Positions 41,459-57,435 of a DNA stretch of 64,000 nucleotides are shown here, piece by piece (position 1 is the stretch's first letter; every line of letters begins with the position of its first letter). The translations under genes were made by a program, and so were the position numbers. The notes beneath the pieces are model-generated. The model was not told the origin of the DNA. It ran no database searches and saw only the letters and a list, made by a program, of their open reading frames with translations. Source of the DNA: Actinomycetota bacterium (GTDB lineage Bacteria; Actinomycetota; CADDZG01; WHSQ01); contig DASZDG010000103.1 of the NCBI GenBank assembly GCA_035942255.1, positions 15,540 through 79,539 of the forward strand, read 5' to 3'.

Positions 41459-42697
41459 TCACGATGCTCGGGTGCGCGGCACCGTCTCGACCCGGATGAG
41501 GGCAGCGGCGCGCTCGGCGACCGCCGCGGATTCTCGTCCGCTCTCGCCGGACGTGATCACGTGGCCGATGAGGTCACCGTCCGAGGTCGGGCGCGCGACC
41601 TCGGCTCCGGGCTCCACCCACAGCTGCAGGTCCTCAACGCCCGGCACAGCCGCAGCTTCCTCGGCGCCGACGATCGCCTCGACGACGCCGTCCTCTTCGA
41701 CCCAGAGGTCGCGCATCGTGCTCGCGCGGCGAGCGCGCGGCGGCGCAACCGTGGACTCGCCGAGATAGCGCCCCAAGACGTACGCGATCGAGTCCGAGCC
41801 CGACGCGTGATCGAGACAGAGGTGGGCCCGCCCGCCGATCAGCCGAGGGTTCAGCTCGACCAGTCGCGGTCCGTCGCCCGTCGTGATCAGCTCGAGGTGG
41901 AACGCGCCGAAGTCGTAGCCGGCCGCCTTTGTCACCAGCCGCACGAAGTCGTCCGCCGCGGCGCAGGGGCGGTCTGCCGAGAACGTCGACCGCACCTCCA
42001 CGAAGTACGGGTACCCCGCGAGCACGCGGTCGGAGTACCCCCAGATCTCGACCTCGTCACCGTCGACGAAACCTTCAGCGCTCGTCAACGGCCCCCGGAG
42101 CTCCTCCTCCAGGAGCAAGACGTGCTTCGGCTCCACCCGGCCCCCATAGAGCGCGCGCTCCCGGTGAGCGCGGACCGCTTCCTCCAGCTCTCGGTCGTCG
42201 GCCACGCGCACCACGTCCCAGCTTGCAAGGCCGTCGACCGGCTTGACGACGCACGGGAAGCCGATCGGCGACGTGGGTGCGCGCTCGTCCGCGGGGACGA
42301 CCGCCCACTTCGGATTGGGGATCCCCGCCCCGTCGAGAGCGCGCCGCACCGCGGACTTGTCGCGGGCGAGCGCCGGCGCGTCCGGCGTTGCTGCGCGCAG
42401 ACCGAGGAGCCGTCCAGCCTCGCTCGTGGCGCGGCCGGTGAAGAGGTCGCTGAACGTAAGCAGACCGCGGGCGTCGGTGCCGTCGGCCGCCGCCGCCATC
42501 GCCGCAGCGGAATGCGTGTCGCAACGCCTCCACTCGTCGACGAGCTCGTGTACCCGGGCGGGATAGTTCGCCGGGTTCGCAGACAGGACGACATTCCGGT
42601 AGCCGAGCTCGCGACTCAGACGGAGCCCCTCGGACCCCGGGCTCGGGACGTCGGGCCCCGCCGGGCTGAGGTGGACCTCTACGAAGAGGACGTCCAC
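41459..42697 (-). CDS. ATP-grasp domain ligase
   Basis: FPCVVKPVDGLASWDV, LLLEEELRG and FHLELITTGDGPRLVELNPRLIGG are typical ATP-grasp segments. Confidence 0.8.
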   Translation of the reverse strand: MDVLFVEVHLSPAGPDVPSPGSEGLRLSRELGYRNVVLSANPANYPARVHELVDEWRRCDTHSAAAMAAAADGTDARGLLTFSDLFTGRATSEAGRLLGLRAATPDAPALARDKSAVRRALDGAGIPNPKWAVVPADERAPTSPIGFPCVVKPVDGLASWDVVRVADDRELEEAVRAHRERALYGGRVEPKHVLLLEEELRGPLTSAEGFVDGDEVEIWGYSDRVLAGYPYFVEVRSTFSADRPCAAADDFVRLVTKAAGYDFGAFHLELITTGDGPRLVELNPRLIGGRAHLCLDHASGSDSIAYVLGRYLGESTVAPPRARRASTMRDLWVEEDGVVEAIVGAEEAAAVPGVEDLQLWVEPGAEVARPTSDGDLIGHVITSGESGRESAAVAERAAALIRVETVPRTRAS

Positions 42698-43887
42698 GCG
42701 GGCTCCGTGCGGGGCATGGCTCGTTGCGCGTCGTCGATTGCTGCCAGGAGGGGCGGGTACGTGTTGGCCTCGCGCAGAGCGTCGAATCTCGCCCTAGCGG
42801 CATCGTCGAGCCTCCGCCTGAAAAGTCCCTCGCCCTCTTCCAGAAACACCGCGGACCACAGCGGGAACAGGCGGCCGCCGCGGGTCACTTTCGCCTCGAA
42901 CGCCTCTGTGCCCAGATGGACTTGCTCGAGGTCGTTCTCGATCGCGTACTGCAGGGGCGCGTAGAGGACGAGTGGGAAGTACGCGCCACGGACCGAGGGG
43001 TCGTCGTAGTCGAAACCCGCCGACCTCAGGAAGAGGTGACGGCCCCACCGGTACGCGAGGCAGTAGCCGATCACCGCGTCGTCGTTGTTCAACACGAACG
43101 CGACGCTGTGCCGGTTCGCTTCCTCGGACGCGAGCCGGAGGCTCTTCTCGAGAGCGCCTTCGTCGGCCGCGCTCCCGTAACGCCTCTGGACGTTGGCGAG
43201 AAGACGCGCCATGACGTTCTCGAGACCCGCTTGTCGCGTCGGCTCGATGGATAGGCCCGAGCGTTCGAAGCGTCCGATCTCACGCTTAATAGCGTTGCGA
43301 CGATCGCGGGAGAACGATCCGAGATATTCGTCAAAGGTCCTCCACTGCACCGCGAGCCGGGCCTCGAAGGTCTCCAGGTAGACGACGTAACCCCTCGGCG
43401 TCAGGACGGGCGACGCTTCCGCGGCCGCGCCGTCGGTCAGGTACATGAGTCCACAGCCGCGAGCGCCCCAGCGGCGCGCCTGCCGCTCCATCTCCTCGAC
43501 GATTCGCGTGGCGACTTCCCCTCGCGCGGCCGGAAGGGCGTCCGGGAGTAGGAGCTGGGAGCGGAAGCCGAGCCTTCCACCCCCCAGCACGAAGGGATGC
43601 AGTGGCTCTTCGACCGGCCCGCCGAGGACGCCGGCCAGGGATTCGGATGGGTCGTAGGGGGACGGCGAGGGTGCGGCCGCGAGGTAGAGGGGGAGACCGC
43701 CGGCGAACTCGTCGTCGACGACGGCCTCCACGCAGGCTTCAGGCCCACTCCATCCGCGGCCCATCGCACGCAGCCACGCGTGTGACGAGTAGAAGCCGTC
43801 GGGCGGAACGAGGCCGTCCCATTGCCCTGCCGGGACGTCGAGGATCGAGGGCGCGACGCGCGTCTCGACGCGGTTACGGCGCGACAC
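42679..43887 (-). CDS. FemAB-like / DUF482-type GNAT-fold acyltransferase
   Basis: WDGLVPPDGFYSSHAWLRAM...LYLAAAP...FDEYLGSFSRDRRNAIKRE...YCLAYRWGRHLFLRSAGFDYD...YAIENDLEQVHLGT. The GTG at 43887 is chosen, and the His-Arg repeat N-terminus of the listed ORF is rejected. Confidence 0.6.
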   Translation of the reverse strand: MSRRNRVETRVAPSILDVPAGQWDGLVPPDGFYSSHAWLRAMGRGWSGPEACVEAVVDDEFAGGLPLYLAAAPSPSPYDPSESLAGVLGGPVEEPLHPFVLGGGRLGFRSQLLLPDALPAARGEVATRIVEEMERQARRWGARGCGLMYLTDGAAAEASPVLTPRGYVVYLETFEARLAVQWRTFDEYLGSFSRDRRNAIKREIGRFERSGLSIEPTRQAGLENVMARLLANVQRRYGSAADEGALEKSLRLASEEANRHSVAFVLNNDDAVIGYCLAYRWGRHLFLRSAGFDYDDPSVRGAYFPLVLYAPLQYAIENDLEQVHLGTEAFEAKVTRGGRLFPLWSAVFLEEGEGLFRRRLDDAARARFDALREANTYPPLLAAIDDAQRAMPRTEPAWTSSS

Positions 43888-56674: not shown

Positions 56675-56679
56675 GCGGC

Positions 56680-57435
56680 TCAGCGGGACAGCACCCCGGC
56701 CCCGGCCAGCTCCTCGAGGAGGATCGGCGCGAACGCAGGGTCGTGCACGAAGAAGTGGGAGCCCGGGACGACGCGCCACCGGAAGACGCCGCCTGCGTGC
56801 GCGCCCCACGCCTCGCAGGCATCCGGCGAGACGCGTTCGTCCGCAGCTCCCGTGAACGCGAGCAGCGGACATGCGACGCGATCGCCGTCCTCGTGACGGT
56901 AGGCCTCCGCCGCGGCGACGTCGGCACGCAACGCAGGGACGAGGTCCTTCAGGATCTGCGGCTTGTTGAGGAGCTCGTTGGGGATCCCTCCGAGGCGCGC
57001 GACCGCGGCGATCAGCTCTGCGTCGGAGAGATGGCCGAACCCGGCCCCCCGCCGCGGGCGGTGCGGCGCCCTCGCACCGGAGACGACGAGGGCCGCCGGG
57101 ACAGCGCGACGCTGGAGCGCCCGCGCCACCTCGTACGCGACGACCGCCCCGAAGCTGTGTCCGTAGAGCACGAACGGGATCTCTGCGACCTGGGCGAGGA
57201 TCGGGGGCACGACCTCGTCGACGACGTCGGAGACGCGCGTCGCCGGCACGTCCCGCAACCGGTTCTGCCGCCCGGCCAGCTGCACCCCCACGACGCGTAG
57301 CTGCGGCAGACGATCGGCCCACGGCCGGTACGCGGTAGCCGGAGCACCCGCGTGCGGGAACGCGATCAAGACCGGCCGGTCCTCCGGGACGTCCTGCGAC
57401 AGGACGACGAGCGGCCGTGTCCGGCTGGGGTCCAC
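56680..57435 (-). CDS. type II thioesterase
   Basis: LIAFPHAGAPA..., GHSFGA nucleophile elbow and a C-terminal HFF motif. Confidence 0.85.
   Translation of the reverse strand: MDPSRTRPLVVLSQDVPEDRPVLIAFPHAGAPATAYRPWADRLPQLRVVGVQLAGRQNRLRDVPATRVSDVVDEVVPPILAQVAEIPFVLYGHSFGAVVAYEVARALQRRAVPAALVVSGARAPHRPRRGAGFGHLSDAELIAAVARLGGIPNELLNKPQILKDLVPALRADVAAAEAYRHEDGDRVACPLLAFTGAADERVSPDACEAWGAHAGGVFRWRVVPGSHFFVHDPAFAPILLEELAGAGVLSR

Follow-up and report, generated by a model that had tools for sequence, protein, structure and literature searches.

The repeat peptide and its putative modifying enzymes

Within a 64,000-nucleotide stretch of contig DASZDG010000103.1 from an Actinomycetota bacterium (the whole of which is called the window below), positions 41,459 to 57,435 hold a cluster of interleaved biosynthetic genes in which a mini-open reading frame (mini-ORF) encoding a peptide with three Glu-Ser-Ala (ESA) units precedes genes for a methyltransferase, a flavin mononucleotide (FMN) flavoprotein and a fused E1-like/YcaO heterocyclase (Table 1). 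Because the G+C content of the window is ∼70%, genes were called from third-position GC (GC3) and each call was checked with Pfam and NCBIfam; the starts of the MFS, FemAB-like and DapA genes were trimmed relative to the first calls. All 15 genes that an initial annotation of this DNA had listed were recovered by these means, at or near their original positions. The genes are separated by gaps of ∼0–130 bp, apart from a promoter region of ∼220 bp upstream of the peptide gene.

Related loci (designated by L numbers) were found in metagenomes, metagenome-assembled genomes and the cultured strain Cellulomonas avistercoris Sa3CUA2. With near-identical contigs counted once, they make up nine lineages: the window, L001, L002, L003, L005, L006, L007, a Cellulomonas group (L004, L050, L051) and a group of lower G+C content and Gram-negative context (L045-47). 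An ORF for an ESA-repeat peptide is present in all nine loci where the relevant stretch lies on the contig, and in the window the mini-ORF is the sole stop-free stretch of 25 amino acids with at least three ESA in all six frames. Across the family there are 64 ESA units, 3–14 per peptide, in which Glu, Ser and Ala are invariant, whereas the spacers of one to three residues vary (the residue after ESA is mostly Val or Ile); the period is 5–7 residues, which amounts to one Ser per 5–7 residues. In all complete precursors the repeats start 2–10 residues past the start codon, without a leader, and three precursors terminate exactly in ...ESA. The peptides read MVVMESAIMESAVWESAIMESAIMESAVWESAIMESAIMESA in L001, MESNVAVFPMESAVQAFESAVQPFESAVQPLESAVQPFESAVQPFESAVRG in L002 (with a close analogue in L003) and MFNNKHIFESAITESAITESEITESAITESAITESAITESA in L047; L005 encodes 11 units and the Cellulomonas locus L050 13–14 units, and the ORFs of L006 and L007 are partial. 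No Pfam or NCBIfam model recognises these peptides, and the complete ones do not show the layout of a precursor of thiazole/oxazole-modified microcins (TOMMs) or linear peptides that contain azol(in)es (LAPs), namely an N-terminal leader followed by a core rich in Cys, Ser and Thr. As the mini-ORF is unique in the window and the same type of peptide is found in eight other lineages, we take its arrangement beside orthologous enzymes to exceed chance. The promoter predicted upstream of the gene agrees with the sigma-70 consensus at 10 of 12 positions, against 0.0 expected in shuffled sequences, and is a consensus match only.

By far the best YcaO sub-model for the heterocyclase is TIGR03604 (SagD family; 205.5 bits, cut-off 219.25), compared with 58 bits for the thioamidation model (NCBIfam). 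Both ExxER motifs (E350/E353/R354 and E462/E465/R466), which in YcaO proteins bind ATP and Mg, are invariant in eight family members, and a CxxC...HPSC signature is invariant in the N-terminal domain. Residues 1–336 match no Pfam or NCBIfam model, and the fold of the fusion was predicted with AlphaFold2 from the eight family members (predicted local distance difference test 82, predicted TM-score 0.86). When this model was compared with known structures by Foldseek, the cyanobactin heterocyclases LynD, TruD and MusD were matched over the full length (E 1e-28 to 1e-23), and the N-terminal domain also matched the E1-like proteins MccB/ThiF. L047 encodes the E1-like half (a protein of 260 aa) and the YcaO half in two genes, one on either side of that for the peptide, and this layout is the classical C/D split. 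Given the LynD/TruD/MusD fold, the invariant motifs, the C/D split in L047 and a SagD score above that of the thioamidation model, we infer fairly strongly that the YcaO would cyclodehydrate the Ser of ESA onto the Glu carbonyl in an ATP-dependent manner. Ser would be the target because it is the sole Ser, Thr or Cys in the peptides of L001 and L003.

The flavoprotein gene is translationally coupled to that of the YcaO. The nitroreductase fold that had been assigned to the protein is indeed present, but in an NfsA/Frp-like rather than a SagB/McbC-type form: its best NCBIfam match is the NfsA model (109 bits, below cut-off), no SagB-type model is among the NCBIfam matches listed, and a profile of the family found NfrA1, YcnD, NfsA and Frp in the PDB and no McbC at E<=1e-3. 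Since it is coupled to the YcaO and kept even in the minimal L047 cassette, the flavoprotein is the obvious candidate for an azoline oxidase, although the assignment of this putative step is less firm than it is for canonical systems. The methyltransferase is conserved in all family loci at 43–58% identity (tblastn), and comparison with the PDB gave no information on the site of methylation. Its ATG lies in the loop of an 8-bp GC-rich hairpin at 47190–47211 (CGTCTGCC/GGCAGACG); this hairpin shows no sign of function, its folding energy being no better than that of shuffled sequence (z = -1.3).

Table 1. Cluster genes, promoter and flanking elements (window positions)
Feature	Position	Strand	Evidence and remarks
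tRNA-Gly(GCC)	40779..40851	+	ARAGORN; Rfam RF00005, 70.6 bits; 3' half forms the left-hand member of the flanking repeat pair
Left att-like direct repeat	40809..40917	.	Repeat search; tRNA 3' half and terminator hairpin region
ATP-grasp enzyme, L-amino-acid-ligase type	41459..42697	-	Pfam LAL_C2 (72 bits), ATP-grasp_4
FemAB-like/GNAT-fold acyl- or aminoacyl-transferase	42679..43887	-	Pfam FemAB_like (50 bits), Acetyltransf_6 (28 bits, cut-off 22); window-only
MFS transporter, putative exporter	43874..45232	-	Pfam MFS_1 (134 bits); ATG start, GGAG upstream; window-only by sequence
FMN-dependent alpha-hydroxy-acid oxidase/dehydrogenase	45360..46571	+	Pfam FMN_dh (441 bits); NCBIfam LldD-/MftD-like, below cut-offs; window-only
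Free peptidyl/acyl carrier protein	46583..46879	-	Pfam PP-binding PF00550 (55 bits); GGDSL phosphopantetheine site
Predicted sigma-70-like promoter	47034..47063	+	TTGACA, 18 nt, GATACT; upstream of precursor gene
Precursor peptide mini-ORF	47097..47174	+	MSAAVLTESAVRPMESAILMESAVL; three Glu-Ser-Ala units, no leader; AGGAGG 7 nt upstream
Class I S-adenosylmethionine-dependent methyltransferase	47201..48007	+	Pfam Methyltransf_25/11/12
NfsA/Frp-like FMN flavoprotein, nitroreductase fold	48004..48804	+	Pfam Nitroreductase; family-specific C-terminal extension
Fused E1-like (1–∼336) and YcaO (337–690) heterocyclase, 690 aa	48805..50877	+	Pfam YcaO PF02624 (202 bits)
Compact cytochrome P450, 375 aa	50881..52008	-	Pfam p450; NCBIfam Cyp119-like (77 bits); intact heme-Cys motif FGYGPHYCLG; window-only
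Class IV (IlvE-type branched-chain) aminotransferase	52001..52963	-	Pfam Aminotran_4 (174 bits); NCBIfam ilvE (367 bits, cut-off 279); window-only
M20 amidohydrolase, dipeptidase/acyl-amino-acid hydrolase type	53017..54165	+	Pfam M20, M20_dimer; TIGR01891 (199 bits, cut-off 154)
DapA-type class I aldolase (4-hydroxy-tetrahydrodipicolinate synthase family)	54162..55052	-	Pfam DHDPS (204 bits)
Adenylate-forming (ANL) acyl-CoA/carrier-protein ligase	55133..56674	+	Pfam AMP-binding, AMP-binding_C
Type II thioesterase	56680..57435	-	Pfam Thioesterase (130 bits); window-only; last recognisable cluster gene
Right att-like direct repeat	60012..60121	.	tRNA-Gly 3' fragment; closes a 19.2 kb segment holding the whole cluster

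Distribution and probable mobility of the family

Members of the YcaO sub-family are very rare: in an exhaustive search of 1.84 billion representative proteins, HMMER found six full-length relatives (E 1e-147 to 1e-58) and, beyond these, only generic matches to the C-terminal YcaO domain, while word-indexed searches with the YcaO as a single sequence or a profile gave at least two relatives. The most productive anchor was the flavoprotein, which as query brought up relatives at 41–71% identity whose contigs were then fetched. A single-protein YcaO scan of species-representative genomes found no relative, and the search with an alignment of four YcaO sequences returned at least 37 loci, all of them generic YcaOs of at most 34% identity; the cultured Cellulomonas genome, a member of the family, was not among the matches listed, and no ESA peptide was present at the 37 unrelated YcaO loci fetched from these species-representative genomes. 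Searches of the plasmid collection brought up generic NfsA (29% identity) and GNATs but nothing that belongs to the family.

Genes for the methyltransferase, the flavoprotein and the YcaO are adjacent in all nine lineages, mostly overlapping, and the same operon recurs in L001-L007, L045-47 and L050/51. One exception to this conserved operon is L048, where the flavoprotein gene is followed by that of an unannotated 536-aa protein. The G+C content of the family loci ranges from 46% to 77%; the members with a taxonomic label belong to Actinomycetota, Acidimicrobiia and Cellulomonas, and L047 adjoins AcrB/OEP efflux genes. This last locus (JGI Ga0209369_1000125, 6000–12000) contains nothing but genes for an MFS transporter, the methyltransferase, the E1-like protein, the peptide, the flavoprotein and the YcaO, has 40–47% G+C within a genome of 62–72% G+C and is directly followed by a DDE transposase. 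It is clearly a foreign insertion and possibly a truncated cluster. The low-G+C cassette beside a transposase in L047, together with the repeats of a tRNA fragment around the window cluster, makes horizontal spread of a self-contained unit likely.

These repeats consist of the 3' half of a tRNA-Gly gene and ∼50 nt behind it, which recur 19.2 kb downstream (97% identity over 59 nt, then 82% over 49 nt), so that the cluster sits on a segment with att-like ends. The pair, each ∼110 nt long, looks like the attL and attR sites of an integrated island; no integrase was recognised on the 19.2 kb segment. The tRNA-bounded insertion of the initial annotation thus holds as a repeat-bounded segment with one tRNA, not two, as neither ARAGORN nor Rfam called a full tRNA at the right repeat. 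Directly upstream of the tRNA gene lies a gas-vesicle gene cluster on the minus strand (36300–40560), with Pfam matches to GvpA-like (39902–40477) and GvpL/F-like proteins, and between the tRNA and the ATP-grasp gene there is a 97-aa ORF on the plus strand (41131–41424; GAAGGAGAG ribosome-binding site) with a zinc-ribbon-like CPRC...CDRC motif. In the regions 57579–59579 and 60501–62681, ORFs with coding-like GC3 encode 149 and 325 aa inside the island and 726 aa just outside it, the latter in a dip to 64% G+C; among these three only the 325-aa ORF has a Pfam match, a weak one to the InlB B-repeat.

Enzymes accompanying the core operon

Genes for an M20 amidohydrolase and an adenylate-forming ligase are found in eight of the nine lineages, the exception being the L047 cassette. 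By this co-occurrence, which extends across phyla, the module of methyltransferase, flavoprotein and YcaO is genuinely linked with the set of M20 enzyme, ligase and aldolase or tautomerase, that is, a module for peptides synthesized by the ribosome and modified after translation (RiPPs) with part of a set resembling non-ribosomal peptide synthetase (NRPS) components. The initial annotation had seen the region as one linked hybrid cluster, to be given up if its genes proved to belong to separately conserved loci. For the core set the link stands; the comparison gave no such support to the genes for the FemAB-like protein, the MFS transporter, the FMN oxidase, the P450, the transaminase and the thioesterase, which have no counterpart in the related loci.

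In the PDB, the nearest relatives of the M20 enzyme are the Xaa-Arg dipeptidase 7YH4 (8e-63) and HmrA, and more distant ones include YxeP, AbgB-like and ILR1-like proteins and CPG2. As a group, M20 acyl-amino-acid hydrolases act on dipeptides or aryl-acyl-amino acids and split off the amino acid at the C terminus, and several of the distant relatives hydrolyse aryl-acyl-amino acids. By analogy, the activity of this group would fit cutting beside a heteroaryl carbonyl, an assignment we make with moderate confidence. The window copy is the most divergent of the family, with 27–29% identity to the M20 enzymes of other lineages.

The ligase has orthologues of 46–53% identity in L001, L004, L006, L007 and L050 (tblastn). 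It is FadD-like in these loci and in the window, and a PaaK-like type is present in L002, L003 and L005. FadD5, malonyl- and oxalyl-CoA synthetases and 4CL are its nearest PDB relatives, CoA ligases of these kinds also lead its NCBIfam matches, and a gramicidin synthase adenylation (A) domain ranks lower. The protein is thus a stand-alone adenylating ligase, as had been noted at the outset, but one that resembles acyl- or dicarboxylate-CoA ligases, not amino-acid A domains; as the ligase is of this type, the carrier-tethered non-proteinogenic amino acid that had been envisaged is not indicated.

A DapA-type aldolase is encoded in the window, L001, L002, L003 and L005, and a 4-oxalocrotonate-tautomerase-family (4-OT) protein takes its place in the Cellulomonas group, L006 and L007. 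The aldolases of the window and L002 score 254 and 270 bits against the dapA model TIGR00674 (cut-off 206), and T44, T45, Y107, Y133, R138 and K161 are invariant relative to E. coli DapA (reference verified as PDB 1DHP), in which Lys161 forms the Schiff base and Arg138 binds aspartate semialdehyde. As the dapA equivalog threshold is passed and the catalytic set is kept, these homologues probably condense pyruvate with an aldehyde resembling an amino-acid semialdehyde. A NahE-like reaction, joining pyruvate to a heteroaryl aldehyde, was downgraded in view of the DapA-specific Arg138 and the score above the dapA cut-off.

Carrier proteins are present in three lineages (window, L001 and L050; orthologues 42–49% identical by BLAST, with 48% for L001 and 42% for L050 relative to the window) and the ATP-grasp enzyme in two (window and L001; 29% identity, BLASTP 4e-13). 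In a phmmer search of all PDB chains the latter is nearest to the L-amino-acid ligases 3VOT and BacD, and also matches Ddl/VanA and RimK. In L001 the genes for flavoprotein, YcaO, peptide, monooxygenase, carrier protein, ligase and ATP-grasp enzyme are co-directional with overlapping stops and starts, and the M20 gene is close behind. The monooxygenase, luciferase-like and of the MupA/Atu3671 type, is shared by L001 and L050 at 67% identity; a thioester-reductase-like enzyme is found in L002 and L003, and a phosphopantetheinyl transferase in L006. The locus in Cellulomonas avistercoris (L050; GCA_014836445.1, JACSQV010000001.1:427,734-448,534) has at L050 positions 436–8600, divergent from the peptide operon, genes for the luciferase-like monooxygenase, two carrier proteins, an enzyme resembling β-ketoacyl-acyl carrier protein synthase (KAS) III, a 158-aa protein, a condensation-like protein (28.3 bits, below the cut-off of 30.6) and two ABC transporter genes, which suggests a fuller hybrid cluster in this cultured strain.

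The six window-only genes are putative members, for which the one argument is their interleaving with conserved genes, mostly at very short distances, inside the repeat-bounded island; the aminotransferase gene, for instance, overlaps the P450 gene by 8 nt. MFS or ABC exporters are present in L003, L005, L047 and L050. Relatives of the FemAB-like protein occur on Streptomyces and Rhodococcus plasmids, where they are annotated merely as GNATs. A perfect (GCGGTG)n hexanucleotide array (43900–43960; minus-strand reading HRHRHR...) lies just upstream of the likely start of the FemAB-like gene and reaches into the end of the MFS gene. This array inflates the naive FemAB-like ORF, whose ‘Transformer’ Pfam match was dismissed as spurious.

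A proposed pathway, its alternatives and its relation to known systems

We propose that the cluster represents a rare, previously unmodelled YcaO family whose substrate is a leaderless tandem repeat of the form (x1-3)-Glu-Ser-Ala, present 3–14 times, and we give the pathway as a whole an even chance of being right. With ATP, the heterocyclase would convert the Ser of every E-S-A unit into an oxazoline by cyclisation onto the Glu carbonyl, the flavoprotein would oxidise the oxazoline to an oxazole and the methyltransferase would add a methyl group, three steps that we consider fairly well supported. With moderate confidence, the repeats would act as multiple cores, so that one peptide would supply a very small Glu-oxazole(-Ala) unit several times over; small units are favoured over one long product because there is no leader, the copies number 3–14, the spacers vary and three precursors end in ...ESA. 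The initial annotation had envisaged a single modified peptide receiving an extra residue, and a mini-ORF that is a leaderless ESA repeat points instead to a very small product made in many copies. The M20 enzyme may free the units by trimming C-terminal residues from the heteroaryl-carbonyl-amino acid, and a MusD-like hydrolytic activity of the YcaO may release them alternatively or in addition (both again with moderate confidence), MusD being a precedent for YcaO-mediated backbone hydrolysis beside azoles (PMC10885120). More speculatively, a second arm consisting of the DapA or 4-OT enzyme, the ANL ligase and the carrier protein or reductase might make or activate a small carboxylic acid, which a lineage-specific amide-forming enzyme might join to the ribosomal unit: the ATP-grasp and/or the FemAB-like GNAT in the window, the ATP-grasp in L001 and the condensation-like protein in Cellulomonas. 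Equally speculatively, the P450, IlvE-like transaminase, FMN oxidase and thioesterase might tailor the product in the window and the MFS transporter might export it.

This pathway has to be weighed against a product that comprises the whole peptide, a linear azol(in)e peptide with an oxazole every 5–7 residues that would be methylated and leave the cell in one piece; genes for the M20 enzyme, ligase, aldolase and carrier protein would then serve for its tailoring or be functionally separate neighbours. B, C and D proteins with a methyltransferase and an exporter make up the classic LAP layout, as in plantazolicin, and the restricted gene set of L047 agrees with it; nor is there a dedicated endopeptidase among the window ORFs, in which Pfam finds no peptidase_S8 or any protease other than M20. 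We nevertheless regard an intact long product as unlikely: the leader peptide is absent, 3–14 copies with variable spacers and only E-S-A fixed are a multi-core pattern and not that of a length-defined product, the M20 and ligase genes are kept in eight of nine lineages, and the L047 cassette, directly followed by a transposase, may be truncated. It is improbable, in our view, that the system is limited to the peptide, methyltransferase, flavoprotein, YcaO, M20, DapA, ligase and carrier protein, with the remaining genes brought onto the same island from one or more unrelated pathways. None of the six window-only genes has a homologue in the related loci, the transaminase passes the cut-off for the housekeeping IlvE equivalog and the plasmid-borne FemAB-like relatives have no annotation beyond GNAT, all of which would fit such a juxtaposition; on the other hand, the P450 and aminotransferase genes sit between those of the YcaO and M20 enzymes with gaps of 3 and 53 bp, the FMN oxidase gene lies between the ATP-grasp operon and the carrier-protein gene, the L001 operon includes a counterpart of the ATP-grasp enzyme, carrier proteins normally have type II thioesterases as partners, and all the genes are inside one repeat-bounded segment of 19.2 kb.

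A peptide serving as scaffold or carrier, on whose Glu side chains or C-terminal Ala a small molecule would be built and then freed by the M20 enzyme, is very improbable. Such a LysW-like or PEARL-like function, with the YcaO activating or cleaving, would explain the invariance of Glu in all 64 units, and the M20 and ATP-grasp enzymes (the latter with LysX-like NCBIfam matches) recall the logic of LysW, where LysK is an M20 enzyme; the DapA-type enzyme retains all residues for an amino-acid semialdehyde substrate, and the pair of ligase and thioester-reductase-like enzyme in L002 and L003 could yield an aldehyde. However, a scaffold working through side chains leaves unexplained why Ser and Ala vary no more than Glu does, the E1-like/YcaO fusion has the fold of a backbone heterocyclase, the ATP-grasp enzyme occurs in only two lineages, and the window ORFs include neither a LysZ/LysY-type kinase or reductase nor a PEARL (LanB-like) enzyme (Pfam).

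Several observations weigh against the small-unit pathway as well. The TIGR03604 score of the YcaO is just under the curated cut-off; the flavoprotein, which is NfsA/Frp-like and not of the azoline-oxidising SagB/McbC type, could be a plain flavin reductase; the window M20, at its low identity to the others, may be a different paralogue; and the DapA homologues, which keep Arg138, may simply make tetrahydrodipicolinate-type precursors unlinked to the peptide. As L047 has no M20, ligase or aldolase, these three are not needed for some product, and the absence of counterparts in any related locus counts against including the six window-only genes. A flavoprotein of 53% identity is encoded in L048 (JGI Ga0535697_000623, 372–1181) with no YcaO or ESA peptide on the 3.6 kb contig. 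Finally, the product, and even the modified residue, is inferred from the genes.

In light of known YcaO systems, the cluster probably works like a TOMM/cyanobactin heterocyclase system, to which its YcaO belongs by predicted fold. With cyanobactin synthesis (LynD, TruD/PatD, MusD) it shares the fold of the E1-like and YcaO fusion and several cores per precursor, but heterocyclase sequence identity is just 14–15%, the leader and the recognition sequences RSI-RSIII are missing, and the window has no PatA/PatG subtilisin proteases and no prenyltransferase; whereas cyanobactin cores have 6–8 variable residues, here three residues are fixed and it is the spacers of 1–3 residues that vary. With TOMM/LAP clusters it has in common a YcaO cyclodehydratase with an E1-like partner (fused, or split in L047), a nitroreductase-superfamily FMN flavoprotein, a methyltransferase and an exporter; unlike them, it has an NfsA/Frp-like instead of a SagB/McbC-type flavoprotein, a leaderless, purely repetitive precursor, and a co-conserved M20 amidohydrolase, ANL ligase and DapA or 4-OT enzyme. 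Thiovarsolins are reportedly made by an actinobacterial YcaO-TfuA cluster found with RiPPER, in which repeated cores in a short precursor give several small products. The present cluster is likewise an actinobacterial YcaO cluster with a short repetitive precursor, but thiovarsolin synthesis thioamidates via TfuA, whereas here the YcaO is of the fused heterocyclase type, the core motif and accessory enzymes are unrelated, and TfuA was neither found in the window cluster ORFs (Pfam) nor listed in the related loci.

Comparison with RiPPs that carry non-ribosomal parts leads to a similar picture. The pheganomycin pathway uses the ATP-grasp enzyme PGM1 to link ribosomal peptides with a non-ribosomal acid, and like the present cluster this pathway has a multi-core peptide gene beside an ATP-grasp gene and genes for enzymes forming a small acid, including an FMN alpha-hydroxy-acid oxidase. 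To our knowledge it has no YcaO and leaves the peptide backbone unmodified. The pheganomycin-type ATP-grasp ligation suggested at the outset found no backing: the window enzyme is of the L-amino-acid-ligase type and occurs in only two of nine lineages, and PGM1 is not among its phmmer matches at E<=0.01 over all PDB chains, a comparison of sequence, not of fold. Pheganomycin is one of few RiPP/non-RiPP hybrids, and a 2023 survey covers five hybrid families (pheganomycins, goadvionins, lipolanthines, cacaoidin and e-series thiopeptides) plus the lipoavitides and names none that is YcaO-based (bioRxiv 10.1101/2023.10.25.564083). Clusters for goadvionins, lipolanthines and lipoavitides resemble ours in having a carrier protein, acyl-activating enzymes and a GNAT-fold transferase near RiPP genes, and the KAS III-like enzyme with two carrier proteins in L050 recalls the FabH-containing lipoavitide clusters. 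These features are divided between our loci: in the window a GNAT-fold FemAB-like protein and a carrier protein occur without a KAS, and no GNAT was seen in L050. Moreover, those hybrids modify leader-bearing (methyl)lanthionine or avionin peptides, no YcaO or tandem-repeat tripeptide core being described for any of them, and the present ligase is as similar to short dicarboxylate-CoA ligases as it is to those for fatty acids.

Of the features of an NRPS, the carrier protein with its phosphopantetheinylation site is present; the amino-acid A domain is absent, and no condensation domain was detected in the window cluster ORFs by Pfam. When the cluster was tested for membership in the lanthipeptides and thiopeptides it fitted neither. 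It thus lacks several defining features of each class named here, which bears out the initial annotation in finding no described RiPP or NRPS class, no TfuA or condensation domain and no lanthipeptide or thiopeptide enzymes. We found neither an ESA-repeat precursor nor this set of genes described in a literature in which subscription journals were thinly covered, and no curated model that matches the YcaO sub-family. We regard the cluster as a new form of YcaO RiPP biosynthesis and possibly as a new class. More specifically, and with rather less than even confidence, we suggest a class of small molecules templated by the ribosome, with a leaderless (x-x-Glu-Ser-Ala)n peptide as the ‘monomer factory’ for methylated Glu-oxazole blocks; these would be cut out and, as a free acid or amine, be coupled via ligase and carrier protein to a DapA- or 4-OT-derived acid, the whole amounting to an assembly line that the ribosome feeds, independent of condensation domains and mobile between phyla.

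As a rule, a YcaO heterocyclase needs a leader peptide, to which a RiPP recognition element binds. If the YcaO described here acts on bare repeats of 5–7 residues, ideas of substrate recognition would change, and a compact, programmable azole-installing system would be at hand. If the repeats are the cores of a product of tri- to pentapeptide size that enters ligase and carrier-protein chemistry, this would be a new RiPP/non-RiPP hybrid, and the first based on a YcaO. The precursor family and the N-terminal domain of the heterocyclase are invisible to current Pfam and NCBIfam models and thus mark a blind spot of genome mining. With one member in the cultured strain Cellulomonas avistercoris Sa3CUA2, and with the smallest version being a cassette of 6 kb, the system is directly testable.

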